From Candidatus Bipolaricaulota bacterium (GTDB lineage Bacteria > Bipolaricaulota > Bipolaricaulia > RBG-16-55-9), in assembly GCA_027021605.1 (NCBI GenBank), contig JALUUA010000251.1, forward strand, positions 1 to 29,461: a stretch of 29,461 nucleotides of DNA, given 5' to 3'. The notes under the pieces are model-generated. The model made no database searches and was not told the DNA's origin. It saw only the letters and a list, made by a program, of their open reading frames with translations. Made by a program: the position numbers and the translations under genes. Shown piece after piece: positions 10,594 to 28,905 of this stretch. The first letter of the stretch is position 1. Every line of letters starts with the position of its first letter.

Positions 10594-10683
10594 ACCGCCG
10601 AAGGCGACGATTCCTCGCGCTGCTTGCGCCCGCTCTTGAGCGGACTCCGGGCCGGACTGGACTAACTAGACTAATTACTAGAG

Positions 10684-12107: not shown

Positions 12108-12931
12108 CGTCGAACCCCCTCGCCTTCGCCTTCGTCTTCGCCCTCGCCCTCGCCCTCGTGCTCGTGGAGCGTCCCCGCCAGGTACGCCTCCTGGACGGCG
12201 GGGTTGTGGGCGACCTCCTCGGGGGTGCCCTCGGCGAGCTTCTGGCCGAAGTGGATAACGACAACGCGCTCGACGAGCTTCATCAGCCCGCGCATGTTGT
12301 GGTCCACGATCACGAGGGTGCGCCCCTCCGCGCGCAGCTCCCGGACGAGGTCGCTCAGCTCCTCGACCTCTTGGTGGGTGAGCCCGGCGAAGGGCTCGTC
12401 GAGCAGCAGGAGCTTGGGGTCGTTGGCCAGGGCCTTGGCGATCTCCAGCTTGCGCAGCCCCGCCTGGGGGAGGGCGTTGGGGTAGGTGTGCCAGCAGTCG
12501 CAGAGGCCGTCGTGGGGTCGGGGCTCGTGGCCGATGGCTTCGCACAGCCCGGCGCGTGCGCAGCAGGCCGCCACCTGCGCGATCCGCTCCCGGCGCCCCC
12601 CCGTTCGCGCGAAGATCGCGTTGGGAAGGAGCGCGATCTCGACGTTCTGGGCCACCGTCTTGTGGCGGAAGGGGCGGGGGATCTGGAAGGTGCGCGCGAT
12701 CCCGGCCTGCACCACCCGGTAGGGCGGCCAGCCCGTGATCTCCCGCCCGCGGAAGACGATCCGACCCCGGTCGGGCTTGTGCATCCCCGTGATGAGGTTA
12801 AACAGGGTCGTCTTCCCCGCGCCGTTGGGGCCGATCAGCCCCAGGATCTCCCCCTCCCGGACGGTGAAGCTCAGGTTGCTTACCGCCTGCAGGCCCCCAA
12901 ACGCCTTCGAGAGGTGTGCCACCTCGAGCAT
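12104..12931 (-). CDS. livG: Branched-chain amino acid-type ABC ATPase (LivG-like) with a Cys/His-rich insertion
   Basis: FGGLQAV, GPNGAGKTTLFNLITG, GIARTFQ, LLDEPFAGL, VDHNM and EGTPEEV motifs; alternative start at 12961. Confidence 0.9.
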   Translation of the reverse strand: MLEVAHLSKAFGGLQAVSNLSFTVREGEILGLIGPNGAGKTTLFNLITGMHKPDRGRIVFRGREITGWPPYRVVQAGIARTFQIPRPFRHKTVAQNVEIALLPNAIFARTGGRRERIAQVAACCARAGLCEAIGHEPRPHDGLCDCWHTYPNALPQAGLRKLEIAKALANDPKLLLLDEPFAGLTHQEVEELSDLVRELRAEGRTLVIVDHNMRGLMKLVERVVVIHFGQKLAEGTPEEVAHNPAVQEAYLAGTLHEHEGEGEGEDEGEGEGVRR

Positions 12932-12989
12932 CGCGATCCCCCCGTCCCTCGTCCGGCTCATCGCTCTTGCTTTGATTTTATTGCAGCGT

Positions 12990-14144
12990 CTATCGTTTCG
13001 CCGCCTCCGTGGGCTCCTGTCTCGGCGTCTGCGTCTGCGTCGGCGTCGACGCCGACGTTGCAGTTGGCCCCCCCGGCGGGCGCTGCTGCGCCGCTGTGGG
13101 AGCGGAGGAGGCCGTCGGGCTCGGCGCGGTCCGGCCGGGGCCCAGGCGGGCGCGCAGCCGGGCGAGGAGTCCGCCCTGGACCAACAGCAGGGTGAGCAGG
13201 GCGAGCGTAAAGAGCACGCCGAAGCGCAGCTCCCCCAGGGGCCGGAAGATCTCCTCGAAGAGCTTGAAGAAGTAGGCCCCGAAGATCGGGCCGATGATCG
13301 TTCCCATCCCACCCAGCACCGCGGTGGCGATCGCCTCCACGGAGCGCTGCAGGTTGAGCACGTCGGAGGGCCCCGCCGAGCCGATGTGATAGACGTAAAA
13401 CGCCCCGCTCAGGCCGGCGAAGAAGCCGCTGATCGCGAACGCCAGCGCCTTGAACTTGGCGGTGTTGATCCCGGCGGCCTGGGCGGCCTCCTCGTCGTCG
13501 CGGATCGCCTCGAGCGCAAGCCCAATGCGGGAGCGGGCGATCGCCCACAGCACCAGGAAGCTCCCGACCATGAGCGCGAGAGCATAGTAGTACTTCGTCA
13601 CGGCGCTAAAGCTCAAGAAGCACTTCAGGCTGCAGAGGATCGTCCCCTCGGCGCCGGGGATGCCCAGATCGAAGCGGTCGGCGGGCTTGAGCCAGCGCAC
13701 GAAGCGGTCGAAGGCCAGGGCCGCCACCAGGGTCATCAGCGAGAGATACGGCCCATGCAGCCTCAAGGCGGGGGCGGCGACGAGCAGCCCCCCCACGGCG
13801 GCCACCAGGGCGCCGAGCCCGATGATCACCCAGGGGTTCCAGCCCACGCTGAGCGAGAGGATCGCCGCCGTGAAGGCCCCCAGCCCGAAGAAGAGGGAGT
13901 GGCCGAAGCTGATCTGCCCCGCGTAGCCCCCCAGCAGATCCCAGCTCATGGCCAGGATCGCCAGCAGGTTCGCCGTGATGAGCACCCCCAGCCACTTGGA
14001 GAGCAGAAAGGGGTTCTGCTGGAGGGAGGGGAACAGCAGGGGCAGCAGGTAGGGGAGCGCGGCCAGGAGCGCGAAGAAGACCACCAGCAGCCCGAGGAGC
14101 CCGGGCTTTCGGGTTCGGGAGCGCTGGGGCGTGTGCGCGCTCAT
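12990..14144 (-). CDS. livM: Branched-chain amino acid-type ABC permease (LivM-like)
   Basis: SWDLLGGYAGQISFGH..FFGLGA, LRL.GPYLSL.TL, AIRDDEEAA.A.GIN and VLGG.GT..GP..GA motifs; low-complexity P/T/A tail. Confidence 0.9.
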   Translation of the reverse strand: MSAHTPQRSRTRKPGLLGLLVVFFALLAALPYLLPLLFPSLQQNPFLLSKWLGVLITANLLAILAMSWDLLGGYAGQISFGHSLFFGLGAFTAAILSLSVGWNPWVIIGLGALVAAVGGLLVAAPALRLHGPYLSLMTLVAALAFDRFVRWLKPADRFDLGIPGAEGTILCSLKCFLSFSAVTKYYYALALMVGSFLVLWAIARSRIGLALEAIRDDEEAAQAAGINTAKFKALAFAISGFFAGLSGAFYVYHIGSAGPSDVLNLQRSVEAIATAVLGGMGTIIGPIFGAYFFKLFEEIFRPLGELRFGVLFTLALLTLLLVQGGLLARLRARLGPGRTAPSPTASSAPTAAQQRPPGGPTATSASTPTQTQTPRQEPTEAAKR

Positions 14145-14995
14145 GCGGCAGCCCTCCCCAACAGCCCCTGGGGCCGGAAGGTGAGCACGAACATCAGCAA
14201 AACGAGGGAGGCGAGCCCGCGGGCCTCCGGCGCGAACTGCTGGACGATCGTCTCGGAGAACCCGATGATGAGGGCCGCCCACAGCGAGCCGGGGATGCTC
14301 CCCAGGCCGCCCAAGACGACCGTGGAGAAGGCGATCGTGAGCAGCAGGCGCTCCTCCAGCGGGCTGATCCCGAAGAACGAGCCCACGAACAGCCCGGCGA
14401 TCGCCGCCAGCGCCCCGGAGAGGGCCCAAACCCACAGGATGATGTTCCGGGTGGGGATGCCCACCAGCGCCGCGCCGCGCCGCTCCATGGAGAGGGCCAA
14501 GATGGCCTTCCCCGCCCGGGTGCGGTTCACGAAGAGCCACAGCGCCCCGATGATCAGCAGCGCGATCGCGCTGGCCGCCAGGCGGTTATACGGGATGCGC
14601 GTCCCGCCCACCACGAGGATGCCGTCGACCAGCGGGGGCAGGATGCGGGAGTTGAAGCTAAAGAGCAGCCCGATGATCTGCTCGAGCACGACGGCAAAGA
14701 GGAGCGTCCCCAGGAAGACGATCACGGGGCGGTCCTCCACGGGCCGGATCAGCAGGAGGTAGACCAGGGGGGCCAGGACGGCCATCCCCCCCACGGCGAA
14801 GAGGGCGGCCGCCGGGAGGCTCCAGCCCCACCCCAGGGCCCAGATCGCCAGATACGCCCCCACCATGGCAAACGCCCCGTGCGCGAGGTTGAGCACCCCG
14901 GCCACGCCGAAGATCATGGTAAAACCCAGCGCGATCAGGGCGTACAGCGAGCTGATCAAGAACCCGAGTAGGAGGACTTCGATGATGCCGCCCAA
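14141..14995 (-). CDS. livH: Branched-chain amino acid-type ABC permease (LivH-like)
   Basis: YALIALGFTMIFGV.GVLNLAHG, T..GKAI.A, VVLGGLGSI.G and RPQGLLG motifs; TTG start. Confidence 0.9.
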   Translation of the reverse strand: MGGIIEVLLLGFLISSLYALIALGFTMIFGVAGVLNLAHGAFAMVGAYLAIWALGWGWSLPAAALFAVGGMAVLAPLVYLLLIRPVEDRPVIVFLGTLLFAVVLEQIIGLLFSFNSRILPPLVDGILVVGGTRIPYNRLAASAIALLIIGALWLFVNRTRAGKAILALSMERRGAALVGIPTRNIILWVWALSGALAAIAGLFVGSFFGISPLEERLLLTIAFSTVVLGGLGSIPGSLWAALIIGFSETIVQQFAPEARGLASLVLLMFVLTFRPQGLLGRAAA

Positions 14996-15089
14996 AGCCT
15001 TGATCCCCTTTGCCTGGTCGCTTTATCGTGTGGCTTTTGGTTGTAGGTCCCTGCCGGCCCCTCCGCCGCGGGGGATGGGACCTCGTCGC

Positions 15090-15119
15090 ATGATAACAAA
15101 GGAGCGCGAGGAGGGCCAC
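15090..15119 (-). promoter_or_regulatory. Possible internal promoter for livHMGF (GTGGCC-N18-TATCAT, extended TG)
   Basis: -35 at 15114-15119 and -10 at 15090-15095. Confidence 0.35.
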
Positions 15120-15215
15120 CCGCCTCCGCCTCCCATCTCCCTCGTCCGGGCGGGGCAGGACAGGACAAGGCAGGGCAGGGCCCTCCTCGCTTTCCGCTCT
15201 TCTCCTAGCGGATCG

Positions 15216-16592
15216 TTAGCGGAGCCACGGCGGCAGGACGAACGACGCGGTGGCCAGGTGCGGCGGGAAGATCACTTCCTGCTGGCCGCCCTGCCACTGG
15301 ATCCAGATCCCCTCGGCCAGGCCGGGGCCGTAGCGGACGTCGTGGGGGAAGTCCTGGTCGGGGCGCAGCAGCGTGACGCCCGTCTCGCCCCGCTCGTAGA
15401 AGCCGAGGTTCCCCGAGGTGCCCACGAAGAGGTTCGTCGGGTTGCCCTCCGCGTCCCGCTTGCCGAACTCCTCCAGGGCCTGGATGACGGCGGTGGTGCT
15501 CGCCTCGTCCTTGGGGAGCACCCCGGCGCTCTCGATGGCTGCCTTCAGCAGGTAGAGCGCGTCGTAGCTGGCGAAGGCGTTGTAGCTGGGGATGGTCACC
15601 TCGGGCTTGAAGTCCGTAAACGCGGCGAAGGCGTCCACGAAGGGGATCGTCTTCTCCGTGATGGGGGCGCGGGCACCCGAGGTGAAGGTGACCACGGACT
15701 CCGCCGCGCCCTGGGTGAGCTGATCGAAGCGGCCGTCCTGGGCCTGGACGTTGATCCCCACCATCGGGAGCGGGACCTGCTGGGCCGCCCACTGGGCCGT
15801 GGGGCGGGTCCCGGTGTGGGCCATGATCGTGTAGATCCCGCCGGTGCGCCCCTCCATGGCGCTTACGGCCCGGTTGAAGAGCGCGGTGAAGTCCGTGGTG
15901 TCCTCGGCGTAGCGGATCGCGTCGGCCACCTGGAGCTTCGAGCCGACGGCCTGCAGCAGCACGGGGAACCCGTCGGTGATGGGCTTCGTCCAAACGGCGT
16001 CCTCGGCGAGGAGGACGATGCTGTCCCAACCCAAGCCGCGCTCCAGGAAGCCGACGGCGAAGGTGAGCGCCGCCTCCAGGATGAGGAAGGAGTTGATCGG
16101 ACCGACGCGGAAGAAGAACTTGTAGTTGTCGTAGTCGGAGGCGACTTGGATGGTGGCCGCCGGGGTCGAGGCCCCCGTCCCCAGGAAGAGCTTGCGCAGC
16201 ACGGGGATGGCGGGCAGGGACCCGACCAGCTCCTCACTGAAGAAGAAGCCGGTCAGCACGTCGGCCCCCCGGCCCACGAGGTCCTGGAGGGCGATGGGGG
16301 CCTGGTCGGCGCGCCCGGCGCTGTCGGAGGTGATCAGCTCCAGCTGGACGCTCGTGTCGCCCACCCGGATGCCGCCGGCGGCGTTGATCTCCTGAATCCC
16401 GAGGCGCAGGGCCTTCTCGGCCGCCTCGCCGAAGAAGGTGGCCAGGGGGTTGGCCATCCCGATGACGAGCGTCTCCTGTCCCCGCACCAGCGGGCCGTGG
16501 GCCCACGGCCCCAGGGAGAGCAGGGCCGCTCCGGCCCCCAACTGCTTCAGGAACGTCCGACGACTCTGCTTCGGAAGACCAGTTTTTTGCAT
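15216..16592 (-). CDS. ABC substrate-binding protein, Liv/PBP type-1 family, with Tat signal
   Basis: SRRTFLK twin-arginine motif, ..EINAAGGI.., FFRVGP and DFTALFN motifs; heads the liv cluster and has a strong SD. Confidence 0.9.
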   Translation of the reverse strand: MQKTGLPKQSRRTFLKQLGAGAALLSLGPWAHGPLVRGQETLVIGMANPLATFFGEAAEKALRLGIQEINAAGGIRVGDTSVQLELITSDSAGRADQAPIALQDLVGRGADVLTGFFFSEELVGSLPAIPVLRKLFLGTGASTPAATIQVASDYDNYKFFFRVGPINSFLILEAALTFAVGFLERGLGWDSIVLLAEDAVWTKPITDGFPVLLQAVGSKLQVADAIRYAEDTTDFTALFNRAVSAMEGRTGGIYTIMAHTGTRPTAQWAAQQVPLPMVGINVQAQDGRFDQLTQGAAESVVTFTSGARAPITEKTIPFVDAFAAFTDFKPEVTIPSYNAFASYDALYLLKAAIESAGVLPKDEASTTAVIQALEEFGKRDAEGNPTNLFVGTSGNLGFYERGETGVTLLRPDQDFPHDVRYGPGLAEGIWIQWQGGQQEVIFPPHLATASFVLPPWLR

Positions 16593-16713: not shown

Positions 16714-16756
16714 TGGGCTCGGCTCGGCTCAGTTCAGTTCAGCTCCGCTCGGCTCA
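16714..16756 (-). repeat. Degenerate pentamer tandem array (GAR-NN) x8
   Basis: Minus strand reads GAG CC GAG CG GAG CT GAA CT GAA CT GAG CC GAG CC GAG CC, starting within the upstream stop codon. Confidence 0.8.
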
Positions 16757-17839
16757 GGAGCAGGGCTTGGCCCGGACCCCCAGCAGCCGGACGGTCTTCT
16801 CCGCCACGGGGTCCACCAGGAGGTCGCAGCCGTTGCTCACGAACGTCAGGAACGCCAGATCGGCCGTGGCCGAGTCCTGCTCCTTGCTGAGGTCCCCCAC
16901 CAGCACGCCGATGGGGTTGGCCGCCACGGTGGTCCCGGTCACGAAGGCGGTCGCGGTCCCGGCCACCTCGGCGAGGGTCTGGCATCCGACGATGAAGGCG
17001 GACGGCCCCCCGATGTGGATGCCCGCCTTGGCGTTGCGCTCGACCCGGCCGTCGACGATCTCCGCCGAGGCGTTGTCGGCCACGCTGATCCCAAAGCAGC
17101 CGCTCTCCTGGACGACGACGTCCTCGATGTAGGCGCTGGCGTTGCCGCCCACCAGGATGCCGTTGATCCCGCTTTGGGCGATGAACGTCTGCGCGCCGAT
17201 CCGGGCGCTCGCCTCGTCCATGATCGAGATGCCGTTTGCGCCGCTCTGGCGGATCACGGTCTTGCCGCTCAGGGTGATACTCGAGCGGCCGCGCAGCGCG
17301 ATCCCGCCGCCGATGGGGTTCCCCAGCACCTCGAGCCCGTTCTGCTGGATGGTGACGTCCTCGAGGACAGCCTGGGCGTAGTTAAAGAGGGCGATCCCGT
17401 TCTGGGCGTTCCCCGCGATCACCACGTCCTTGAGGACGATCAAGGGCGAGAGCTGCTCGGGGAGCCCCGGGGGCGATTGGCCCTGCACGCCGTTTAAGCC
17501 CGCGGTGATCGTCATCCCGCGCAGCTCCACGCGGAACGGCCCGGCCACGATCACGCCCTTGGCCACCGAGACCTGATGGGGGCCGCTGCCGATGAGCGTG
17601 AGGCTGTTGCCGATGATGACCGGCCCGACGTACTCCCCGGCCTGGATGAAGATCGTGCTGCCGGGCGAGGCGGCGGCGACCGCCTCCTGGATGGAGGTGA
17701 ACCCGCACAGCGGCGGCCCCTCGGGGCAGACGGTGAGCAGCTCGCCCGCCTGCGCTCCCAAGGCCCCGCCGCCGAGCGCCAACAGAAGCCCTACCAGAAG
17801 CCAGCGACCGGCCCCTCGCTTCGCGTACAGTGCTCGCAT
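16754..17839 (-). CDS. Secreted right-handed parallel beta-helix (pectin-lyase-like/NosD-like) protein
   Basis: Signal peptide (ALGAQA), FTSIQEAV.AA..G.TIFI.AGEY, repeated N..GI.(L/I) coils and strong SD (GAGGAGG) before ATG 17839. Confidence 0.85.
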   Translation of the reverse strand: MRALYAKRGAGRWLLVGLLLALGGGALGAQAGELLTVCPEGPPLCGFTSIQEAVAAASPGSTIFIQAGEYVGPVIIGNSLTLIGSGPHQVSVAKGVIVAGPFRVELRGMTITAGLNGVQGQSPPGLPEQLSPLIVLKDVVIAGNAQNGIALFNYAQAVLEDVTIQQNGLEVLGNPIGGGIALRGRSSITLSGKTVIRQSGANGISIMDEASARIGAQTFIAQSGINGILVGGNASAYIEDVVVQESGCFGISVADNASAEIVDGRVERNAKAGIHIGGPSAFIVGCQTLAEVAGTATAFVTGTTVAANPIGVLVGDLSKEQDSATADLAFLTFVSNGCDLLVDPVAEKTVRLLGVRAKPCS

Positions 17840-18000
17840 ACCGAACCTCCTCTTTTGGGTTTTGCGGAAAGGTACTCCTCGGCGAAAGAAGCGGTCTCGT
17901 CCCGTCCCGTCTGGGCGAAGACCGCCCGTGGTTCTGTGCTCCTCCTCTCCCACCTCCTTCTCCACACGGTGTGGTTTTAGAAGAGCGCCTCTTCCCTTTT

Positions 18001-18030
18001 TTGCCCAAGGGGGCTTCGTTTGTCTATACT
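18001..18030 (+). promoter_or_regulatory. Putative promoter of the iorA-like operon (TTGCCC-N18-TATACT)
   Basis: -35 at 18001-18006 and -10 at 18025-18030. Confidence 0.55.
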
Positions 18031-18142: not shown

Positions 18143-19669
18143 ATGAGCAAACCCCAATCGGGCGAGAGCGCCCTCGTCGAGGCCCTCAAGCGGGGGGACG
18201 TCGCGCTGGTGACGGGCGTCTACGGCGACCCCTGTACGTCCCTTTTGGATCGCATGCGGGCCGAGGGGCTTCGGGTCGAGATCAGCGTGGAGGAGAAGAC
18301 GGCCCTCTCCCAAGCCCTGGGGGCCTCCGCGGTGGGCAAGCGGGCCGTGATGGCCGCCAAGCAGGTCGGGATCAACGTGGCCGCCGACCCCCTGGTGACG
18401 GCGGCCACCCACGGGATCGGCGCGGGAGTGCTGGTGATCTGCGGGGACGACCCCGGCGCGGCCAAATCGCAAAACGAGGAGGACTCCCGCTGGTACGCCA
18501 AGCTCACGGAGCTGCCGCTGATCGTGCCCCACGACCCCCAAACGCTGGCCGCCGGGGCCGTCGAGGGGCTCCAACTCTCGGAGGAGCTGGGGGTCCCCGT
18601 GCTGATGCAGATCACCGGGCGGCTCACCCGGATGACGGGGCCCGTCGAGCTTCCGGAGCCCTTGGGCCCGGCTCCCGCGTTCCGGAGGGAGCGGGCCTGG
18701 AGCCGCTTCATCCTCGAGCGCCACAAGTACCACCTCCAAGAGGTCTGGCCCAAACTCCAAGCCCACGTGGAAGGCTCGAAGCTCCACCGCGCGCAAAAGC
18801 GCGAGAACGCGCGGGAGGGCGTGATCTCCTGCGGGTACGCCTCCTCGCTGGTGGAGCACGAGAACCACCTCGTGCTGGGCTACGCGCACCCCCTTCCCGA
18901 GAGGCTCCTTGTGGGGTTTCTAGAGGGCCTGGAGCGCGTGCTGATCGTCGAGGAGATCGCGCCGTTCGTGGAGGAGGGCGTCCGGGCCCTCGTGGGAGTG
19001 CATCGTTTGGGGGTCGAGGTCCTCGGGCGGCTTACGGGCCACCTCCCGCGGGTGGGGCAGCTCGAACGCGAGCACGTCGCCGCGGCCCTCGCGCGGGAGC
19101 CCCAGGGCTGGAACTTCGATATAAAGATGCAGCTGAGCGACACGCTGCAGACCGTTCCCTGCGGCGGGTTCGAGCCCCTGTATCAAGCCCTGGCGGAGGT
19201 GCTTCCTGAGGGCCATCCCGTCGCCGGGGACGTGGGCTGCTCCATCCTGCACGGCTACTTCCCGCCCCAGGTCGTCACCACGGCGTACGCGCTGGGAACG
19301 TCGATCGGGACGGCAGCGGGGATGAGCCTCTCCGGGGGGAAGGGCGTCGCCCTGATCGGGGACACGGGCTTTCTGCACTCGGGGATCACCGGGCTGCTCA
19401 ACGCCGTCGAGTTCGGGCACAACGTGCTCGTGATCGTGCTCTACAACCGCATCTCGGCCATGACCCCCGGGGAGCAGGACATCCGGGGCATCGAGAAGCT
19501 CAAAGCGCTGATCGAAGCCTGCGGCCCCACGGCTATAGACGAGGTCGACGTCGACCGCGCCTCCCCGGAGGAGCTAAAGGGGCTCTTGGAGAAGCGCCTG
19601 GAGGAGCAGGGCGTCCACGTGGTGATCGCCAAGGCCCAGCCCCGGCCCTTCGGGATGGGCATTGGGTAA
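18143..19669 (+). CDS. IorA-like ThDP-dependent enzyme (indolepyruvate:ferredoxin oxidoreductase alpha homolog) lacking the ferredoxin domain
   Basis: EEKTAL..A.GAS..GKRA, KQVG.NVAADPL, GDDPG..KSQNEEDSR, GDVGC and ThDP motif GDTGFLHSG...LYN; ends without any CxxCxxCxxxC. Confidence 0.85.
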   Translation: MSKPQSGESALVEALKRGDVALVTGVYGDPCTSLLDRMRAEGLRVEISVEEKTALSQALGASAVGKRAVMAAKQVGINVAADPLVTAATHGIGAGVLVICGDDPGAAKSQNEEDSRWYAKLTELPLIVPHDPQTLAAGAVEGLQLSEELGVPVLMQITGRLTRMTGPVELPEPLGPAPAFRRERAWSRFILERHKYHLQEVWPKLQAHVEGSKLHRAQKRENAREGVISCGYASSLVEHENHLVLGYAHPLPERLLVGFLEGLERVLIVEEIAPFVEEGVRALVGVHRLGVEVLGRLTGHLPRVGQLEREHVAAALAREPQGWNFDIKMQLSDTLQTVPCGGFEPLYQALAEVLPEGHPVAGDVGCSILHGYFPPQVVTTAYALGTSIGTAAGMSLSGGKGVALIGDTGFLHSGITGLLNAVEFGHNVLVIVLYNRISAMTPGEQDIRGIEKLKALIEACGPTAIDEVDVDRASPEELKGLLEKRLEEQGVHVVIAKAQPRPFGMGIG

Positions 19670-19714
19670 GCGCGAAGGAAGCACAGCGGGGTAAGCGCAC
19701 GGGTTGGGCCCGCG

Positions 19715-20266
19715 ATGACGCGCACGGAGCGTTTTGTGCAGGAGCTGGCTCGGGTGGGGGGCACGGCCGCCGTGCTCGCGCCCCCGGAGGTGCCCGCCCA
19801 CGTCGCGGGTCTGCTCCGGGAGCGGGGAGCCCGTGGGGTTCTCCTGGCGCCCGACCCCCTGCCGGGCGAGCCCGCCTGGGAGCCGGCCCTGCGGGAAGCC
19901 CTGGAGGGGGAGGGTGTCACCGTCGTCCGCGGCGCGGAGGACCCCGCCGGCCTGCGGGAGGTCCCCGCGGGGATCACGGGGGCCCTTGCGGGCGTGGCCG
20001 AGTCGGGCACGCTGCTGCTCGGCGGGAAGCCCCGAGGCCCCTGGCAGTGGGCGAGCCTCCTGCCACCCCTGCACGTGGCCCTCGTCCGCGAGGAGCGGAT
20101 CTGCGCTTCCCTGGACGAGGCTTTTTGTGTGCTCCGCGAGTCCCTTCAGGAGGGCGTGGAGGAGTTCGTCTGGATCACGGGGCCGAGCCGCACCGCCGAC
20201 ATCGCGATCACGCTGCTGTTGGGGATGCACGGCCCCAAGGAGCTGCACGTCGTGGTGGTGAGCTAG
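19715..20266 (+). CDS. lutC: LUD-domain protein, LutC/YkgG-like
   Basis: GVAESGTL, SLLPPLHVA and ITGPSRTADI...GMHGP motifs. Confidence 0.88.
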   Translation: MTRTERFVQELARVGGTAAVLAPPEVPAHVAGLLRERGARGVLLAPDPLPGEPAWEPALREALEGEGVTVVRGAEDPAGLREVPAGITGALAGVAESGTLLLGGKPRGPWQWASLLPPLHVALVREERICASLDEAFCVLRESLQEGVEEFVWITGPSRTADIAITLLLGMHGPKELHVVVVS

Positions 20267-20267
20267 C

Positions 20268-22388
20268 GTGCCCCGGGATCTGGCCCGAGAGATCGAGGAT
20301 GCCCTTCAGAACGGGAACCTCCAGCAGGCCCTTGCGGGCTTTACGGGGGCCGTGGGCTTCCTGCGCGCCCAGGCGATCGCGGACCTCCCCGATTACGAGG
20401 GGCTGCGCGGGCGGGCCCGCCGGATCAAGGCCGAGGCGATCGAGAACCTCGACGCCCTTCTCGAGCAACTGAAGGAGAGCGTCGAGGCCCGCGGCGGCCG
20501 CGTGGTGTTCGCCCGCGACGGGGAGGAGGCCCTCCGCTACGTTCGGGACCTCATCCGCGCCCACGGCGTCCGACGGATCGTGAAGTCGAAATCGATGACC
20601 GCGGAGGAGATCGGGCTTGCGGAGCGCTTGGAGGCCCTGGGGGTGAGCGTCCTCGAGACGGACTTGGGGGAGCGGATTGTGCAGCTGGCCCGCGAGCGGC
20701 CCTCGCACCTCATCGGCCCGGCGCTCCACAAGACCCTCGACGAGGTGCGCGGGGTCTTTCGGGAGTGGCTCGGGCTCGAGGACCCTCCCCGGGAGCCCGC
20801 GGAGCTGGCCCGCCTGGCCCGCCAAGCCCTGCGCGATGCGTTCTTCGAGGCCGAGATGGGGATCACGGGCGCGAACTTCGCCGTGGCCGAGACGGGCCAT
20901 TTGATGCTCGTGGAGAACGAGGGGAACATCCGCCTGACGGCCCGCCTTCCGAAGGTGCACGTCGCCCTCATGGGCGTCGAGAAGGTCCTCCCCGCGCTCG
21001 AAGATCTTACGGTGTTCTTGAAGCTCCTCCCCCGCAGCGGGACGGGGCAGAAGCTTACGAGCTACGTATCGCTCTTTGCCCCCCGGCCCGGCCTGCACCT
21101 CATCGTTCTGGACAACGGCCGCTCGCGGCTGCGGGCGGACCCCGAGCTGCGCGAGGCCCTCTACTGCATCCGCTGTGGGGCCTGTTTAGATAGCTGTCCC
21201 TCCTACCAGGCCGTGGGCGGACACGTCTTCGGGGGCCGCGTCTACATGGGCGGAATCGGGACTGCCTGGACCGCCGGGGTGGACGGCCTAGAAGAGGCCG
21301 CCGAGTTCCACGGGCTGTGCACGAGCTGTGGGCGCTGCACGGAGGTCTGCCCCGTCAAGATCGACATCCCCTGGCTCAATACCGCCATCCGGAGTCGGGC
21401 CCGGCAGCTCGAGAGCCCCCGGCACCGCCGGGCCGCGAGGGTGTTGGGGGAGATCGACCGCTGGGCCCGGTGGGGGAGCCTCCTCGCCCCGCTCGGCAAC
21501 CGCGCGCTGCACTCGGGGCCGGGAAGGCGGCTTGTGGCCCGCGCGCTGGGCCTCGACCCCGAACGGACCCTCCCCAAGTTCGCGCGGCCTACGTTTCGGG
21601 CCCAAGCCCGGACACGCCCCCGATCCCAGCGGCAGCGCTTGGGGGCGGTCGACGGCGTAAAGCTCTTCGTGGACTGCTTTACGAACCACTTCGAGCCGGG
21701 GGTCGGGCTCGCCGCGCTGCGGGTCCTGGAGCGCCTCGGGGTCCGGGTGGAGCTTGCTCGTAACGTCTGCTGCGGGCGCGCGGCCCTCTCCCAGGGGCTC
21801 CTCGAGCGGGCGCGGGCCCTTGCCAACGAGAACGCCCGCCGCCTGCTCCCCGAGCTTCGGGAGGGGGAAACGATCGTAGGGATCGAGCCCAGCTGTGTTG
21901 CGGCCCTGCGGTCGGAGTACCGTCACCTGCTGCCCCCCAAGGAGGCGGAAGGGCTGCGGGAGCGCGTCCGGGACGTGATGGAGTTCCTCGCCGAGCCCGA
22001 GATCTCCCGGAGGCTCTCGGAGCTCCTTCCGTCGGAGGAGCCCAAGAAGGTCGTCTACCACGGCCACTGCCAGCAGAAGGCCCTCGGCTCCCACGGGGCG
22101 ATCGTCGCGCTCCTGCGGGACCTGCCGGGCCTGGAGGTGCAGACGGTGGAAGTAGCCTGCTGCGGGATGGCGGGGTCGTTCGGCTACAAGCGCGAATTCG
22201 CCGCGCTCTCGCGCCACCTGGGGCGCCGGCTGGTTGGGCTCGTGGAAGCCCAAGGGCAAGGGGGGGAGCCGGTGGCGTGCGGCTTCTCGTGCCGATCGCA
22301 GCTTCGGGATCTGGGGGGCCTGCGGGCGCGGCACCCGGTACAAATCCTCGACGAACTCTTAGCCCAATCGCAGGAGGGATCGCTATGA
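20268..22388 (+). CDS. lutB: LutB(LUD + 2x[4Fe-4S])-LutA(CCG) fusion Fe-S oxidoreductase
   Basis: KSKSM..EEI, ETDLGE, GANFAVAETG, ENEGN, CIRCGACLDSCP, CTSCGRCTEVCPVKI, then CCG domains (CCGRAA, EPSC, HGHC, CCGMAGSFG, CGFSC). Confidence 0.9.
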   Translation: MPRDLAREIEDALQNGNLQQALAGFTGAVGFLRAQAIADLPDYEGLRGRARRIKAEAIENLDALLEQLKESVEARGGRVVFARDGEEALRYVRDLIRAHGVRRIVKSKSMTAEEIGLAERLEALGVSVLETDLGERIVQLARERPSHLIGPALHKTLDEVRGVFREWLGLEDPPREPAELARLARQALRDAFFEAEMGITGANFAVAETGHLMLVENEGNIRLTARLPKVHVALMGVEKVLPALEDLTVFLKLLPRSGTGQKLTSYVSLFAPRPGLHLIVLDNGRSRLRADPELREALYCIRCGACLDSCPSYQAVGGHVFGGRVYMGGIGTAWTAGVDGLEEAAEFHGLCTSCGRCTEVCPVKIDIPWLNTAIRSRARQLESPRHRRAARVLGEIDRWARWGSLLAPLGNRALHSGPGRRLVARALGLDPERTLPKFARPTFRAQARTRPRSQRQRLGAVDGVKLFVDCFTNHFEPGVGLAALRVLERLGVRVELARNVCCGRAALSQGLLERARALANENARRLLPELREGETIVGIEPSCVAALRSEYRHLLPPKEAEGLRERVRDVMEFLAEPEISRRLSELLPSEEPKKVVYHGHCQQKALGSHGAIVALLRDLPGLEVQTVEVACCGMAGSFGYKREFAALSRHLGRRLVGLVEAQGQGGEPVACGFSCRSQLRDLGGLRARHPVQILDELLAQSQEGSL

Positions 22389-23146
22389 GCGTGAAGGCAT
22401 TTGACTGCACGGGCAAGGTCGCCCTGGTGACGGGCGGAGGGCGGGGGATCGGGCGGGCGATCGCCCTGGCGCTCGCAGACGCGGGCGCGGACGTGGTGCC
22501 CACGAGCCGCACACAGACGCAAATCGAGGCGGTGGCGGGCGAGATCGAAGCCCGGGGCCGGCGGACGCTCGTACAGCCCTGCGACGTGGCCGATCCCTCC
22601 CAGATCGAGGCGCTCGTGCGCAGGGTGGTGGACGAGCTGGGCCGGGTGGACGTGCTGGTGAACGCCGCGGCGATCAGCCCCCTGTGGAAGCGCATGGAGG
22701 AGGTCACCGAGGACGAGTGGGATCGCATCATGGGCGTGAACCTCCGGGGGGCCTTTCTCCTCAGCCGCGAGGTGGGAAGGCACATGCTGGAGCGGGGGGG
22801 CGGCTCCATCGTGCACATCGCGTCCATCGCGGGGCTCAAGGGGGTCACGCACTTCGGGGTCTACGCCGTGAGCAAGGCCGGGCTGATCGGGCTGGTTCGG
22901 GTGCTGGCGCGGGAGTGGGCCCCCCAAGTGCGGGTGAACGCGATCGCGCCGGGGTGGGTGCGCACCGACATGGCCCGCCCTGTGCTGGGGCACCCGGAGA
23001 TCTCGAAGGGGCTCCTCCGCGAGATCCCCCTGGGACGATTTGCCGAGCCCGAGGAGATCGCGCCTTTAGCCGTGTACCTGGCCTCGGACGCCTCGAAGTT
23101 CGCCACCGGGCAGGTGTTCGTGGTGGACGGGGGACAGCTGCTGTAG
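22385..23146 (+). CDS. Classical short-chain dehydrogenase/reductase (likely NADP-preferring)
   Basis: TGGGRGIG, TSRT after beta2, VNAA, IAS, YAVSK and RVNAIAPG motifs; ATGA overlap with the upstream stop. Confidence 0.92.
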   Translation: MSVKAFDCTGKVALVTGGGRGIGRAIALALADAGADVVPTSRTQTQIEAVAGEIEARGRRTLVQPCDVADPSQIEALVRRVVDELGRVDVLVNAAAISPLWKRMEEVTEDEWDRIMGVNLRGAFLLSREVGRHMLERGGGSIVHIASIAGLKGVTHFGVYAVSKAGLIGLVRVLAREWAPQVRVNAIAPGWVRTDMARPVLGHPEISKGLLREIPLGRFAEPEEIAPLAVYLASDASKFATGQVFVVDGGQLL

Positions 23147-23153: not shown

Positions 23154-23711
23154 TTACACCTCGAGCACCTGCTGCTCCTTCTCCTTCATGAGTTCGTCGA
23201 TCTTCTCGGTGAACTCGTGGGTGATCTGATCCATCTCCTTGATGGCCCGGTGGAAGTCGTCCTCGCTCAGCTCCCCCTCCTTCTTCTGGCGCTCCAGCTC
23301 CTCCTTCATGTGGCGGCGGATGTTGCGGATCGCGATCCGGGCCTCTTCGGCCTTCTGGTGGACGACCTTCACCAGCTCCTTGCGCCGCTCCTCCGAGAGC
23401 TTGGGCACCGCGATCCGCACCACCTCCCCGTCCGAGGAGGGGTTGAACCCCAAGTTGGCCTCCAAGATCGCCTTCTCGATCGCGGCGATTTGGGACTTGT
23501 CGTAGGGCCGGATCACGATGAGGCTGGGCTCCGGGGCCGTGATCGTGGCCAGATGTTTCAGGGGCGTCTTGGTGCCGTAGTAGTCGACCATCACTTCCTC
23601 GACCATGGCGGGGTTGGCCCGCCCCGTGCGCACGTGTCGCAGCTCGTCCTCGAAGACGCGGAGCGACTTCTGCATGTGCTGGCGCATCTCCTCCAGGCTC
23701 CTGTCCGGCAT
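23154..23711 (-). CDS. frr: Ribosome recycling factor
   Basis: VRTGRANP...V.VDYYG..TPL, NP.SDG..VRI..P.L.EERRKELVK and ARIAIRNIRR motifs; 185 aa from ATG 23711. Confidence 0.97.
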   Translation of the reverse strand: MPDRSLEEMRQHMQKSLRVFEDELRHVRTGRANPAMVEEVMVDYYGTKTPLKHLATITAPEPSLIVIRPYDKSQIAAIEKAILEANLGFNPSSDGEVVRIAVPKLSEERRKELVKVVHQKAEEARIAIRNIRRHMKEELERQKKEGELSEDDFHRAIKEMDQITHEFTEKIDELMKEKEQQVLEV

Positions 23712-23797: not shown

Positions 23798-23827
23798 TTG
23801 ACCCCCACGGGGACCCAAGGCTACCAT
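23798..23827 (+). promoter_or_regulatory. Putative promoter of the LVIVD gene (TTGACC-N18-TACCAT)
   Basis: -35 at 23798-23803 and -10 at 23822-23827. Confidence 0.55.
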
Positions 23828-23891
23828 GCTCCGCCGGGATTGTCCGCAAAACGGTAGAACGGCACGGGAAAGGGGAGGTGAACCCGTTTCA

Positions 23892-26210
23892 ATGACGGCG
23901 ATGACGGCCCAGACCGCTCTGCCCTCCCGGGCGCTCCTGCTCCTTGCGCTCGCCGCCTTCGGGACGCTGCCGGCCGTCGTGCCCGCGAAGGGGTACCACG
24001 ACGGCTCGCTGCGCCTCCACACGTGGAACGTGGAGCTCGTCGGCCACAACGGCGAGGTGGCCCGCGTGGGCAAGGGGATCACCGAGCTGCAGGTGCGCGG
24101 ACCGTATGTTTATCTGGGCTCCCTCGGCGGGGTCCTTCTGGTCGTGAACGTCTCCGACCCCGCAAATCCCCAGCTGGTGGGGAAGCTCGCCTTCGAGGGC
24201 GGCGACATCCGCGACGTAAAGCTCCACCCCACCCGGGAGATCGCGGTGATCACCCTGCGGGTGGGCGAGCCCCCCGATCGGGGCTTTCGGATCCAGTTCC
24301 CCGGGGTCTTCGACCTCCGCTTGGGCGGGGAGACCCCCGGCGAAGAAGAGGGGGAGGGGGAGGGGGAGGGAGAAGAAGAAGAGCCCGCAGGGGACTTCTT
24401 CCGCGGGATCGTGGTGGTGGACCTCTCCGATCCGCGCAACCCCCGGGAGCTAGCGCGACTCCCGAACGTCGACGACCGGGGGGAGCCGAGCGAGGTGCAC
24501 AACCTCTACGTTGACGGGGACTACGCGTATCTGGTGGGCACGGGCCGCGGCCTGGTCGTCGTGAGCCTCCAAGACCCCGAGAACCCCCGGGAGGTTGCGG
24601 TCTTCCGCGGCTCGGGGATGTACTACCACGACGTGGTGGTAAAAAACCTCCCCAACGGGCGCCGGATCGCCTATCTTTGTGGGATCTTCACGGGGCTGCA
24701 CCTCGTGGACGTCACCGTGCCGGAGGCCCCCGTGGAGCTGGGGGTCTGGCGGGAGCCGGGCTGGCTGCAGGCTCTGACCCACTACGCCGAGCCGACGCCC
24801 TCCGGGAGGATCACGGTCGTGGGGCCGGAGCACGGCTCCGGGTACGCGGGGCGGCTCTACCTCGTGGACACCCGGGACCCCAACCGCCCGCGCCTCCTCT
24901 CGACGTGGAGCCTCCCCGGCCACGAGTGGCAGCCCTCGGGCTTCCCGCCCCAGCGATTTCAGTACCAGTGGACGCTCCACAACTTCGACGTGCGGGAGGA
25001 TCGGGTGTACCTGGCCCACTACGGCGCCGGGGTCTGGGTGATCGACATCTCCGACCCCCAAAGCCCGAGGGCGATCGCCTCCTTCGGGCCGGAGTCCTTC
25101 CGGCCTTCGGCCCTCGTCCCGGATCCGGAGCACGAGGGGCAGGAGGGGTTCCCCGTCCCCCGGGTCTGGGCCGTGGAGGAGCAGGACGGCCTCCTCTACG
25201 CGAGCGACATCTCCAGCGGGCTCTACGTTCTGAGGGTCAAGGAGGGGATCGAGAGCCCCGGGTCCCTGGAGCGCTCGCTGGGGCCGTCGGGGTGGCGCGC
25301 CGCCCCCGTCTTCGCCTCGGACCCGGAGGGAGGGCTCTACGGGCTCCAAGGGGAGCTCCTGGGCCGGTGGAAGGTGCGCGCCCGGGTGGCCCTCACCCCC
25401 TCGCTGAGCCTTCGCTACGGCATCGGGGCCCTCTACGCCCTCCGGGAGTCCACCCGCGTAGGGGGCAGCTGGCGCCACTGGCCCTCAACCCCCGTGCCCG
25501 GGTTTGCGGGCGAGACGGGCGGGCGACTTGTGTGGCGCGAGGAGGGCGAGCGGACCAAGCTCCTTGCCTCCCTCTTCGTGGGCGAGCTGTGGGGGTGGGC
25601 AGGGCAAGGAGAAGCAAACTCCCCCGAGCGCTCCCCCGCGGGCTATCTACACGGAGGGGTGAGCCGCTTCCTCAAGCTCACGCCGTGGGAGTCGTTTTCG
25701 GTGCAGCTTGACGGCCTCTACGGACGCCTGTTGGTGCTGGGCGAGTCGCCCCGGGACTTCTTCGTGGGGAGGCTCTCGATCCTGTATCGCTGGAAGGGGC
25801 TGCACCTTCGGGCGACCGTGGGCCGACGGTGGGAGGTGGCCCCCGTTGAAGAGCTGCGCTTCGGCCTAGGGGGCTTCGACTCCGAGGTGCCCGTGCGCGG
25901 CTACCCCCGCCGGGCTCTCGAGGGGGACGGCCTTCTGGCCCTGAGCGCCGAGTGGCGCTTCCCCAGCCCCATCAAGCCGAGTCCCTACTCCCCGGCCCTG
26001 GAGGCGTTCGTCTTCGTGGACGTAGGCGTGGCCCTGCCCGCGGGGGCCGGGATCGGGCTGCTCAATGAGGCGAAGTGGCTCCGGAGCCACGGCTTCGGGA
26101 TCGTCCTCTCCAACCTGGGGGACCGGGTGGGGGAAGAGCTTTCCGTGGTGGTCGCCTTCAACGACCAAGGGCAGCCGAGCCTCCAGCTCCTGCGCCGGAC
26201 GCTCTTCTAA
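23892..26210 (+). CDS. Secreted LVIVD-repeat beta-propeller fused to an Omp85/BamA-like beta-barrel
   Basis: Signal peptide; repeats LLVVNVSDPANP, IVVVDLSDPRNP, VVVSLQDPENP, LVDVTVPEAP, LVDTRDPNRP and VIDISDPQSP; C-terminal region with VRGY, FVFVDVG, HGFGI and terminal Phe. SD GGGGAGGTGA precedes ATG 23892. Confidence 0.8.
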   Translation: MTAMTAQTALPSRALLLLALAAFGTLPAVVPAKGYHDGSLRLHTWNVELVGHNGEVARVGKGITELQVRGPYVYLGSLGGVLLVVNVSDPANPQLVGKLAFEGGDIRDVKLHPTREIAVITLRVGEPPDRGFRIQFPGVFDLRLGGETPGEEEGEGEGEGEEEEPAGDFFRGIVVVDLSDPRNPRELARLPNVDDRGEPSEVHNLYVDGDYAYLVGTGRGLVVVSLQDPENPREVAVFRGSGMYYHDVVVKNLPNGRRIAYLCGIFTGLHLVDVTVPEAPVELGVWREPGWLQALTHYAEPTPSGRITVVGPEHGSGYAGRLYLVDTRDPNRPRLLSTWSLPGHEWQPSGFPPQRFQYQWTLHNFDVREDRVYLAHYGAGVWVIDISDPQSPRAIASFGPESFRPSALVPDPEHEGQEGFPVPRVWAVEEQDGLLYASDISSGLYVLRVKEGIESPGSLERSLGPSGWRAAPVFASDPEGGLYGLQGELLGRWKVRARVALTPSLSLRYGIGALYALRESTRVGGSWRHWPSTPVPGFAGETGGRLVWREEGERTKLLASLFVGELWGWAGQGEANSPERSPAGYLHGGVSRFLKLTPWESFSVQLDGLYGRLLVLGESPRDFFVGRLSILYRWKGLHLRATVGRRWEVAPVEELRFGLGGFDSEVPVRGYPRRALEGDGLLALSAEWRFPSPIKPSPYSPALEAFVFVDVGVALPAGAGIGLLNEAKWLRSHGFGIVLSNLGDRVGEELSVVVAFNDQGQPSLQLLRRTLF

Positions 26211-26265
26211 TTTAGCGGCTGCCCGGGTTCCCGTACAAAACTCGATTCGCGAGGGGAGATTCGCA

Positions 26266-27300
26266 ATGCAGGCACAGAGACAGAAGCCGAAGCCGACGAC
26301 GCAAGGAACGGTCCGGATCGAGCACGTAGAGAGCCGGGTGCTGAGGGACAACCCCTTGGGGGACCCGCACGTGCGGGAGGTGCCCGTCTACCTCCCTCCC
26401 GGCTACGAGAGCGCAGAGGAGCGCTATCCCACGATCTACTTCCTCACGGGGTTTACGGGCTTCGGGCGGGCGCTGCTCAACCGCCGCGCCTTCGAGGAGG
26501 CGCTCGACCAGAGGCTCGATCGCTTGATCCAAGAGGGGAAGATGCGCCCCGTTATTGTCGTGATGCCCGATTGCTTCACCCGCTTAGGCGGGAGCCAGTA
26601 TCTCGACTCCGAGGCCACGGGCCGCTACGAGACCCACCTCCTGGAGGAGCTGGTGCCCCTCATCGACGCAAAGTATCGCACGATCCCCGAGCGGGAGCAG
26701 CGGGCCGTGGTCGGCAAGTCGAGCGGCGGGTTTGGGGCGCTGGTGCTGGGGATGCGCCACCCCGACGTGTTCGGCGTGGTGGCCTGCCACAGCGGGGACA
26801 TGGGCTTTGAGTACTGCTACTTGCCTGACTTCCCCCCGGCGATGATCCAGCTCGAGAGGCACGGCGGCGTCGAGGGCTTCTTGGAGCACTTCTATCAAAA
26901 GCCCAAGAAGGGCCACGAGGACTTCCTCACGCTCAACGTCGTGGCGATGGCCGCCTGCTACTCGCCCAACCCCGCAAAGCCCCTACGGATTGAGCTGCCC
27001 TTCGACGAGCGGACGGGAGAGCTGCTGCCCGACGTTTGGGAGCGCTGGCTTGCGTGGGACCCGGTGCGCATGGTCGAGAGGCCCGAGTACGAGAGCGCCC
27101 TCCGCCGGCTGAGGATCTTCTTGGACTGCGGCACCAAGGACGAGTTTCGGCTCTATGCCGGGGCCCGGATGCTCTCCGCCAAGCTTCGGGCAAGGGGCAT
27201 CGAGCACGTCTACGAGGAGTTCGAGGACACGCACATGAACATCCCGTATCGCTATGACTGCTCCCTTCCGTGGATCTCGGAGTGCTTTGGGGCAGCGTAG
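26266..27300 (+). CDS. Alpha/beta-hydrolase, putative esterase family (Fes/FrmB-like)
   Basis: VYLPPGY..., YPTIYFL.G, IVVMPD, nucleophile elbow GKSSGG, FLDCG..DE and terminal H motifs. Confidence 0.88.
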   Translation: MQAQRQKPKPTTQGTVRIEHVESRVLRDNPLGDPHVREVPVYLPPGYESAEERYPTIYFLTGFTGFGRALLNRRAFEEALDQRLDRLIQEGKMRPVIVVMPDCFTRLGGSQYLDSEATGRYETHLLEELVPLIDAKYRTIPEREQRAVVGKSSGGFGALVLGMRHPDVFGVVACHSGDMGFEYCYLPDFPPAMIQLERHGGVEGFLEHFYQKPKKGHEDFLTLNVVAMAACYSPNPAKPLRIELPFDERTGELLPDVWERWLAWDPVRMVERPEYESALRRLRIFLDCGTKDEFRLYAGARMLSAKLRARGIEHVYEEFEDTHMNIPYRYDCSLPWISECFGAA

Positions 27301-27969: not shown

Positions 27970-28905
27970 ATGCGACAAAAGGTGACCGTGGTGGGCGCGG
28001 GCTTTGTGGGGGCGACCGCGGCCCAGCGCATCGCGGAGAAAAACTTGGCCGACGTGGTGATGATCGACATCCCCGAAAAGGAGGGCCCCACCAAGGGCAA
28101 GGCCCTCGACATGCTGGAGGCCGCCCCCCTGGTGGGCTTTGAGGCCCGCATCGAGGGCACGAGCGACTACGCTGCGATGGAGGGCTCCGACGTCGTCGTG
28201 GTCACGGCCGGGGTGCCAAGAAAGCCCGGCATGACCCGGGAAGACCTCATCAACATCAACACGAACATCATCAAGAGCGTCACGGAGCAGGTCGTGAAGT
28301 ACGCCCCCGAGGCGATTTACATTGTGGTGACGAACCCGCTGGACGCGATGGTCTACGCGGCCTACAAACTCAGCAGCTTCCCGCCGGAGCGGGTGATCGG
28401 GCAATCGGGGGCCTTAGATTCCACCCGCTTTCGCGCCTTCATCGCGATGGAGCTGGGGGTCTCGATGCGGGACGTCCACGCCTTGGTAATCGGGGGCCAC
28501 ACGGACGTGGGGATGGTCCCGTTGGTGAGCTGCTCCTCCGTGGCGGGCATCCCGCTTACGAAGCTCCTGCCCAAGGACAGAATCGACGCGCTGGTGGAGC
28601 GCACCCGCAAGGGCGGGACGGAGATCGTCCAGCTGCTGCAAGACGGGAGCGCGTACTACGCCCCCTCGGCGGGCGTGGCCGCGATGGTCGAAGCCATCCT
28701 GCTGGACGAGAAAAGAGTGATCCCCTCGGCCTGCTACCTGAGGGGCGAGTACGGCATCCAGGATCTGTATTTAGGCGTCCCCGCGGTGCTGGGGGCCAAG
28801 GGTGTGGAGAAAATCTTGGAGATCGAGCTGGCCCCGGAGGAGCGGGAGCAGCTCCAGAAGGCCGCCGAGATCGTCCGCGAGACCGCGAGCAAGGTCACGC
28901 TGTAA
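27970..28905 (+). CDS. mdh: Malate dehydrogenase (LDH-like MDH)
   Basis: [26 protein letters not shown] (Arg at the specificity position), [17 protein letters not shown] and GSAYYAP motifs. Confidence 0.93.

Follow-up and report, generated by a model that had tools for sequence, protein, structure and literature searches.

We analysed a window of 29,461 nucleotides (the whole stretch of contig JALUUA010000251.1, assembly GCA_027021605.1) from a metagenome-assembled genome of Bipolaricaulota that is 85% complete. In this window a gene for a thiamine diphosphate (ThDP) enzyme resembling IorA, the alpha subunit of indolepyruvate ferredoxin oxidoreductase (IOR), is followed on the same strand by genes for a LutC-like protein, a LutB-LutA fusion (LutB-A) and a short-chain dehydrogenase/reductase (SDR). 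The IorA-like gene represents a new variant among ThDP enzymes of 2-oxoacid:ferredoxin oxidoreductase (OFOR) type, IorB-free, depleted of iron-sulfur (Fe-S) cluster ligands and probably acting as a decarboxylase. The four genes are arranged as follows.

18143..19669 (+), IorA-like ThDP enzyme gene, 508 aa, TAA stop
19715..20266 (+), lutC-like LUD-domain gene, 183 aa, ATG at 19715 and TAG at 20264-20266 (PF02589, 84.5 bits)
20268..22388 (+), lutB-lutA fusion gene of the LdhH type, 706 aa, GTG start, TGA stop (Pfam and NCBIfam)
22385..23146 (+), classical SDR gene, 253 aa, ATG start, motifs TGGGRGIG and YAVSK

The stop codon of the IorA-like gene is separated by 45 nt from lutC, which is in turn separated by a 1-nt spacer from lutB-A. 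The SDR start is coupled translationally to lutB-A via an ATGA overlap, with AGGAGGG upstream of the SDR gene. These gene calls, and the 1-nt and ATGA junctions of the last three genes, had been put forward in an original prediction made from the DNA sequence and were confirmed when we checked the sequence.

An IorA-type protein that has lost two cluster ligands and its ferredoxin domain

The IorA-like protein contains the Pfam domains TPP_enzyme_N and TPP_enzyme_C, and its best NCBIfam family is TIGR03336 (IOR_alpha), with a score of 283.3 bits that does not reach the equivalog threshold (650.9). Since the match covers positions 7-529 of a model with 595 positions, the protein has no ferredoxin tail; no cysteine occurs after residue 460 of the translation, and the C-terminal 2x[4Fe-4S] ferredoxin domain is absent. 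Canonical IorA proteins of the same phylum, which are 28-33% identical to the window protein in alignment, possess a C-x2-C motif, a GDxGC motif and a C-terminal cysteine, plus eight further cysteines in the ferredoxin tail. By contrast, the four proximal [4Fe-4S] positions read C, deletion, C and P in the window protein, indicating that two of the four ligands are gone. The residues concerned, together with those of the active site, lie at the following positions.

18227..18229 (+), Asp29, invariant in the clade (column counts of alignment A1)
18290..18298 (+), E50-E51-K52, with E51 the conserved ThDP-activating Glu, nearly invariant in 120 relatives
18488..18490 (+), Arg116, presumed binder of the 2-oxoacid carboxylate, invariant in 120/120 IorA-type sequences
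19160..19171 (+), C340-G-G-F, remnant of C-x2-C with the first Cys kept and the second deleted (alignments)
19238..19240 (+), Cys366 in GDVGC, the third cluster ligand, kept and invariant in the clade (alignments)
19358..19447 (+), ThDP/Mg motif G406-D407...N435, followed by T441-P442-G-x (alignment A1)
19640..19642 (+), Pro500, where the fourth cluster Cys stands in canonical IorA (alignments)

The second cluster cysteine was lost through a 2-residue deletion (PCGG--FE), and the protein terminates eight residues past P500. Alignment A1 comprises 120 IorA-type sequences, 38 of which belong to the clade of the window protein, and all 38 share the pattern, as C-C-P in 34, C-C-A in 3 and C-C-G in 1. 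The fourth-ligand column accordingly holds P, A or G in the clade (34, 3 and 1), and Cys in 53/53 canonical and 21/21 short archaeal-type sequences. The original prediction had noted CGGF at 19160, loss of the distal cysteine and of the Fe-S domain and the lack of a following iorB, and the alignment and family scores bear out each of these. However, its description of the enzyme as Cys-less and without Fe-S ligands applies to two ligands only, as C340 and C366 survive in the alignments and are clade-invariant.

The catalytic Glu of the EEK motif and the ThDP motif had also been read as retained, and E51, R116 and G406-D407...N435 are indeed intact in A1. The carboxylate-binding role of Arg116 is one we assume from the literature on pyruvate:ferredoxin oxidoreductase (PFOR). 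Position 29 is Thr or Ser in most canonical IorA proteins (YPGTP motif), Tyr or Phe in most archaeal short relatives and Asp in the clade; the Thr/Ser of YPGTP is presumably the position that touches substrate in the Desulfovibrio PFOR structure. After the Mg-binding Asn, TPGx is unique to the clade, while T-G-x-Q is found elsewhere and T-G-G-Q in nearly all short relatives. His90 is present in all short groups, where canonical IorA mostly has Thr, Ser or Ala. As judged from aligned residues, D29, TPGx and His90 would fit an altered active site.

An AlphaFold2 model built from 120 relatives had a mean predicted local distance difference test score (pLDDT) of 96.1. In it, domain I of the OFOR fold covers roughly residues 1-170, domain II roughly 180-325 and domain VI roughly 330-508. 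Comparison by VIA-align gave Z scores of 29-31 against OFOR alpha subunits (30-31 across residues 1-330), with 482 residues superposing on Moorella PFOR 6cin_A at 3.5 Å (Z 29.4). Foldseek ranked single-chain decarboxylase-family enzymes at the top, yet with a TM score of about 0.3 and a root-mean-square deviation (rmsd) of about 22 Å. The pyruvate decarboxylase (PDC)-like fold of the DC family suggested by this ranking was rejected, because the exhaustive VIA comparison gave 16-17 Å rmsd for it versus 3.5 Å to PFOR; the PYR, TH3 and PP domains of that family match singly, and the global arrangement differs. A phmmer search of the IorA-like protein against PDB sequences gave no match, and no solved structure of an IorA is known. 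The comparison thus identifies the protein as an OFOR-fold ThDP enzyme with domains I-II-VI rather than a PDC-like one.

The gene is a conserved paralogue restricted to one order and lacks an IorB partner

The IorA-like gene was found in 27 of 184 Bipolaricaulota genomes, one copy each, all in the order of the window and there in families f1, f2, f4 and f5. When 1.8 billion representatives were searched exhaustively and without a profile, the clade was represented by one full-length entry (a 50%-identity representative, 684 bits), and the next match scored 291 bits. The clade is tight and restricted to one order of Bipolaricaulota, and it is supported as a group in a maximum-likelihood tree. 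In this tree, proteins of the canonical IorA type were split from a group of short proteins with a support of 100. Within the short group, a first set of archaeal and other members has kept all four cysteines and has no tail, a second clade including Paenibacillus, Marininema and Mechercharimyces has lost all four, and a third set consists of the window's clade with a Halorutilales protein as its sister (support 99), the latter again without any of the four. Given that cysteine loss differs between these sets, the cluster site was lost more than once.

No iorB gene lies next to the IorA-like gene in the window, and the best match to IOR_beta (TIGR03334) anywhere in the same genome reached 36 bits against a cut-off of 206. 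An IorB-like match was likewise absent from 11 of the 27 carrier genomes, some of which are 93-94% complete. The unlinked iorB that the original prediction had named as a counter-argument was therefore found neither in the window's genome nor in these 11. The window's genome encodes seven POR-gamma domains, several of them near other OFOR alpha-/beta-type matches on the same contigs. In the 35 genomes of the order, IorB-like genes are confined to those that also have canonical iorA and, wherever the positions of both genes were listed, are no more than about 2 kb from it, and several genomes hold canonical iorAB together with the IorA-like gene. This co-occurrence indicates that the IorA-like gene is a paralogue with a function of its own and not a decayed IOR. 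The proposal of a real, IorB-free and cluster-depleted IorA-type protein is thereby upheld, and the protein is in addition a conserved paralogue.

The SDR gene is a steadier operon partner than the lut genes

To see which genes accompany the IorA-like gene, we compared the gene order around it in 30 loci, which fall into the following arrangements by identity of the IorA-like protein.

73-100% identity (the window, L027, L028, L029, L058): followed by lutC, then by lutB-A and SDR where the contig continues
60-68% identity (L016, L017, L030, L031, L059, L060, L064): SDR directly after, usually with an acyl-CoA (coenzyme A) ligase
57-63% identity (families f2, f4 and f5, 15 loci with flanks): IorA-like gene among unrelated genes

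Adjacency of the IorA-like and SDR genes spans 60 to 100% identity inside family f1, often with the acyl-CoA ligase gene next. LutB-A homologues were detected in 20 of the 35 genomes of the order, but on other contigs, and two of these cases, when examined, showed lutC-lutBA as a lone pair among housekeeping genes. No LutBA match at E<=1e-60 was found in G021 and G037, both of which carry the IorA-like gene. Given that the enzyme occurs without adjacent lut genes or without LutBA genome-wide, Lut is not its obligate redox partner. Within family f1, the SDR is thus a steadier operon partner of the IorA-like enzyme than Lut, and the Lut connection is lineage-specific. The original prediction had treated a lack of conserved lut linkage as evidence against itself. 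In this respect the outcome is divided, as linkage is kept on five contigs at >=73% identity, but the SDR gene follows directly at 60-68% and the IorA-like gene stands alone in f2, f4 and f5. In the tree, the basal split of family f1 has lut-linked loci on either side, so that both an insertion of lut and its later deletion are possible.

In G119, a genome of the window's genus, lutC-lutBA-SDR genes 63-91% identical to those of the window (L164:3518-8890) are divergent to a gene for a 546-aa aldehyde dehydrogenase, and the IorA-like gene ends another contig. Either the genes have been rearranged there or the assembly is at fault. The orthologue of the G119 aldehyde dehydrogenase in the window's own genome (93% identical) is encoded on contig C266, where it adjoins another acyl-CoA ligase gene. 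In L028 (11888-15145) the SDR gene is followed downstream by genes for an acyl-CoA ligase, a protein with a PCC domain and an acyltransferase of the BioF/Kbl family; the latter, which would condense an acyl-CoA with an amino acid, matches TIGR01825 with 625 bits, above cut-off, in an order without bioB.

The surroundings of the operon in the window comprise the following features.

12104-16592 (-), Liv-type ATP-binding cassette (ABC) transporter, beyond the beta-helix gene
16754..17899 (-), beta-helix (NosD-like) gene, divergent, start approximate (Pfam; synteny)
18001..18030 (+), promoter-like site (TTGCCC-18-TATACT, consensus scan alone), with the IorA-like start 113 nt downstream
23154-23711 (-), frr, convergent on the SDR gene

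The operon ends at the SDR gene because frr converges on it from the minus strand, and the promoter-like site is located in the intergenic stretch from which the beta-helix and IorA-like genes diverge. The beta-helix and Liv neighbourhood is kept throughout family f1 by synteny, the divergent genes being present upstream at 60-100% identity wherever the contig extends that far. Downstream of the lut genes, at a distance of 5 kb, is a gene for an NAD-dependent lactate/malate dehydrogenase, at 27970-28905 (+). The window further contains recA at 9466-10593 (-), a gene for an LVIVD-repeat protein at 23826-26210 and an esterase gene at 26065-27300.

LutB-A and the SDR match specific families below their cut-offs

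By Pfam, LutB-A consists of a LUD domain, a 2x[4Fe-4S] dicluster and a CCG domain, and its translation contains two CxxCxxCxxxCP motifs and two CCG motifs (CCGRA and CCGMAGS). The domain set of LutABC/LdhGH is therefore complete, with LUD in LutC, LUD and the dicluster in LutB and two CCG motifs in LutA. However, LutB-A scored below the cut-offs of both LdhH NF045670 (504.8 bits, cut-off 800) and LutB TIGR00273 (378.9 bits, cut-off 444.8). The substrate of LutC/LutB-A could be a 2-hydroxyacid other than lactate. A PDB search returned no relative of LutB-A among solved structures. The SDR matched adh_short with 203 bits and adh_short_C2 with 244 bits and has the features of a classical SDR. Subtyping against NCBIfam and PDB gave generic FabG-like matches under every specific cut-off and resolved no subfamily. 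Among its many family matches are one of 200 bits to the meso-2,3-butanediol dehydrogenase BudC and one to a putative acetoin reductase structure.

Short IorA-like relatives in archaea and other bacteria

Short IorA-like proteins of about 480-530 aa, annotated as 'thiamine pyrophosphate-dependent enzyme', are encoded in Methanothrix, ANME-2, Methanoperedens and others. They form the nearest outgroup of the window's clade at 38-41% identity, and they resemble it in length, in having no ferredoxin tail or adjacent iorB and in carrying His90. They differ from it in that all four cluster cysteines are kept and position 29 is mostly Tyr or Phe. Several are encoded next to genes of the aks/leu type for 2-oxoacid elongation. 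In 4 of 8 archaeal loci the short four-Cys homologues adjoin aksA-like and aconitase genes, although the proteins are only about 42% identical to one another. In these loci (L036, about 6001-12200; L082; L084; L086) the short IorA-like gene has convergent aksA-like and aconitase/Iso_dh genes as neighbours. Of 301 Halobacteriota genomes that were sampled, 85 carried one copy, and 76 of these 85 also encoded McrA, an association inflated by kinship. McrA was present in 164 of the 301, and about half of the Mcr-bearing genomes had no strong match to the short IorA-like protein.

The sister of the window's clade is encoded in a Halorutilales archaeon (CP169074.1; L080:1-9431) within an operon of bioB, bioW, bioU-like, bioF, bioD, aksA-like (HMGL-like), aconitase large and small subunit, Iso_dh and IorA-like genes. 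The homoaconitase-type pair and the isocitrate-dehydrogenase-like gene (aksD-E-F) precede the IorA-like gene, which is the last of the operon and encodes a protein of 476 aa with all four cluster cysteines lost. From its gene content, the operon suggests that pimelate for BioW may be made via chain elongation to 2-oxosuberate and subsequent ThDP-dependent decarboxylation. The intermediates of the coenzyme B and pimelate pathway have been described (PMC3087415), and we found no paper naming a 2-oxosuberate decarboxylase. The archaeal short IorA-like gene is a candidate to encode a decarboxylase (or oxidoreductase) that acts on 2-oxosuberate in coenzyme B or pimelate synthesis.

A biotin or pimelate role was also considered for the window's own clade, prompted by the Halorutilales bio-aks operon and the BioF/Kbl gene of L028. 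We dropped it because none of the order's 35 genomes, of which 18 are >=90% complete, yielded bioB, bioD was not found in the window's own genome and no aks gene lies within about 9 kb of any Bipolaricaulota locus.

In Paenibacillus polymyxa, a fully Cys-less IorA-like gene (L079:9001-10590) follows two ABC ATPase genes and is succeeded by genes for a nucleotidyltransferase, an epimerase, a radical S-adenosylmethionine protein, PTPS and GTP cyclohydrolase I, in what looks like a 7-deazapurine or sugar-nucleotide cluster. In a Thermodesulfobacterium sp. (L039:6001-11643), a gene for a 516-aa IorA with four cysteines and no ferredoxin tail converges on an operon of iorB, paaK, ACT, paaK and ACT that is itself without iorA.

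Discussion

OFOR-type enzymes are defined by the passage of electrons from ThDP through Fe-S clusters to ferredoxin: the ThDP-bound carbanion is oxidised via the proximal cluster, and domain III is needed for CoA. The IorA-like protein has neither an electron route nor a CoA site, and a ferredoxin- and CoA-independent, non-redox outcome is therefore the simplest. We propose, with moderate confidence, that the enzyme is a CoA- and ferredoxin-independent 2-oxoacid decarboxylase that passes an aldehyde to the SDR and is fed from 2-hydroxyacids by Lut in the window's lineage. In this scheme, LutC and LutB-A would oxidise a matching 2-hydroxyacid to supply the 2-oxoacid, which would then be decarboxylated non-oxidatively, with protonation of the carbanion and release of the aldehyde. 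The clade-specific Asp29 and His90, the latter common to other short relatives, would be candidate proton donors. The SDR would act on the carbonyl product by reducing the aldehyde to an alcohol, and at sister loci with an acyl-CoA ligase gene an alternative route could lead onward to an acid and its CoA ester. This is the first of two models in the original prediction (2-hydroxyacid to 2-oxoacid, decarboxylation, then SDR), and it fits all of the evidence as a model.

Given that a route from lactate or pyruvate yields no energy, a larger and possibly amino-acid-derived acid taken up via the Liv system is more plausible as substrate; a carboxylate derived from an amino acid, or a similar one, is also what the divergent ABC transporter of the Liv type suggests. 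A hint of an aldehyde comes from the aldehyde dehydrogenase gene divergent to lutC-lutBA-SDR in G119. Relatives lend further support: the Halorutilales sister is found in a bio-aks operon where a 2-oxoacid must lose one carbon, and the separate Cys-less clade includes aerobic Bacillota, the one locus examined there being a biosynthetic-looking cluster. OFORs are also reported to show a pyruvate decarboxylase side activity that releases acetaldehyde (PMC9405506).

Several points weigh against this proposal. The side activity of OFORs depends on CoA (PMC9405506), and the IorA-like protein is without the CoA domain. An SDR would be an unusual aldehyde oxidiser, and a link to the acyl-CoA ligase needs a further enzyme. 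For pyruvate or lactate the proposed route would give no energy, and carboligation is compatible with the same data. C340 and C366, and also C230 and C460, are invariant over 79 clade sequences with identities down to 57%, and the protein may therefore bind a metal or an unusual cluster.

Carboligation would make the enzyme an acyloin- or acetolactate-type synthase, in which a second carbonyl compound is attacked by the ThDP carbanion, the alpha-hydroxyketone so formed is reduced by the SDR and Lut provides pyruvate from lactate, on the model of butanediol formation by AlsS and BudC. It would use the same cofactor chemistry without a redox partner, and the BudC and acetoin reductase matches of the SDR as well as the biosynthetic-looking surroundings of the examined Bacillota relative speak for it. 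However, the BudC match is one among many families, the SDR remains generic FabG-like below every specific cut-off, no acetolactate decarboxylase gene lies nearby, and the aks-bio operon of the archaeal sister calls for decarboxylation rather than ligation. We therefore consider carboligation unlikely.

It is also conceivable that a metal centre has been kept, be it a cluster with non-Cys ligands, a [2Fe-2S] cluster or Zn, held by C340, C366 and others such as E344 or H370, which would serve a structural or redox-sensing role and leave the decarboxylase chemistry unchanged. The invariance of C340 and C366 in the 79 clade members, which E344 shares, argues for such a centre. By contrast, all four cysteines are lost from the sister lineage and from the other Cys-less clade, indicating that the fold does not need a cluster site; half of the cage is gone through P500 and the deletion; and strand topology, to judge from the secondary structure of the model, should put C460 and C230 at a distance from the site. 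On this evidence a retained metal centre appears improbable.

In the second model of the original prediction, the ThDP intermediate is oxidised and the Fe-S clusters of LutB-A/LutC replace ferredoxin as electron acceptor in a physical complex. The tight junctions in the window and L028, and the two [4Fe-4S] and two CCG motifs of LutB-A, would suit this model. However, most of the clade has no adjacent lut genes, some carrier genomes have no LutBA match and lutC-lutBA is elsewhere an independent pair, and two of the four ligands are missing from the proximal cluster, with which electron transfer begins in every OFOR. Electron transfer to the LUD complex is thus not a property of the family, and we regard the model as very unlikely. 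A normal CoA-dependent IOR with an unlinked IorB and free ferredoxin, to which IOR_alpha as best family match and the seven POR-gamma domains might point, is largely refuted and barely credible in view of a score of 283 bits against 651, the loss of two ligands and the ferredoxin domain, the absence of IorB from the window's genome and from 11 carrier genomes, the closeness of several POR-gamma matches to other OFOR subunit matches, and the retention of the IorA-like gene in genomes with canonical iorAB.

Among known systems, IorA (TIGR03336) is the family with the best score, and the IorA-like protein agrees with it in the domain order I-II-VI, in the ThDP/Mg motif and in having both the catalytic Glu and the invariant Arg. 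It departs from IorA in scoring less than half of the cut-off, in lacking the 2x[4Fe-4S] domain, two proximal cysteines and IorB, and in having D29 and TPGx. The bifunctional POR/PDC enzymes of hyperthermophiles (PMC9405506) are likewise OFOR-fold ThDP enzymes that decarboxylate 2-oxoacids non-oxidatively, a reaction that is only proposed for the window protein; they differ in keeping their Fe-S clusters and gamma domain, and their decarboxylation is a CoA-dependent side reaction. The family of PDC, indolepyruvate decarboxylase (IPDC) and benzoylformate decarboxylase has the proposed chemistry and the linear order PYR-middle-PP, but its three-dimensional arrangement differs by about 17 Å rmsd, and its members are analogues rather than relatives. 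LutC and the LutB-LutA fusion resemble LutABC/LldEFG and the LdhG/LdhH lactate dehydrogenase in their LUD, dicluster and CCG domains, and differ from them in scoring under the equivalog cut-offs. The Desulfovibrio lactate operon includes a full PFOR. In the literature we found no description of a cluster-less IorA homologue.

A wider reading, which we consider doubtful, is that short IorA-like proteins in general are unrecognised ferredoxin- and CoA-independent decarboxylases. The aks-linked archaeal ones, including the last gene product of the bio-aks operon, would then be the missing 2-oxosuberate decarboxylase of coenzyme B and pimelate/biotin synthesis, and the Bipolaricaulota clade a cluster-free offshoot recruited together with LutC/LutB-A and the SDR into a new route from 2-hydroxyacid via 2-oxoacid and aldehyde to alcohol.

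The protein represents a conserved lineage of the OFOR scaffold that has preserved fold and cofactor and has shed half of the proximal-cluster ligands, the ferredoxin domain and the CoA subunit, a probable reuse of the scaffold for non-redox chemistry, and it may be less oxygen-sensitive than cluster-bearing OFORs. Because it is routinely mis-annotated as 'IorA' in several sources, fermentation of aromatic amino acids could be attributed to Bipolaricaulota by mistake when their metabolism is reconstructed. The wider family of short proteins may contain the missing decarboxylase of coenzyme B and archaeal pimelate synthesis, for which a defined candidate gene is now available.

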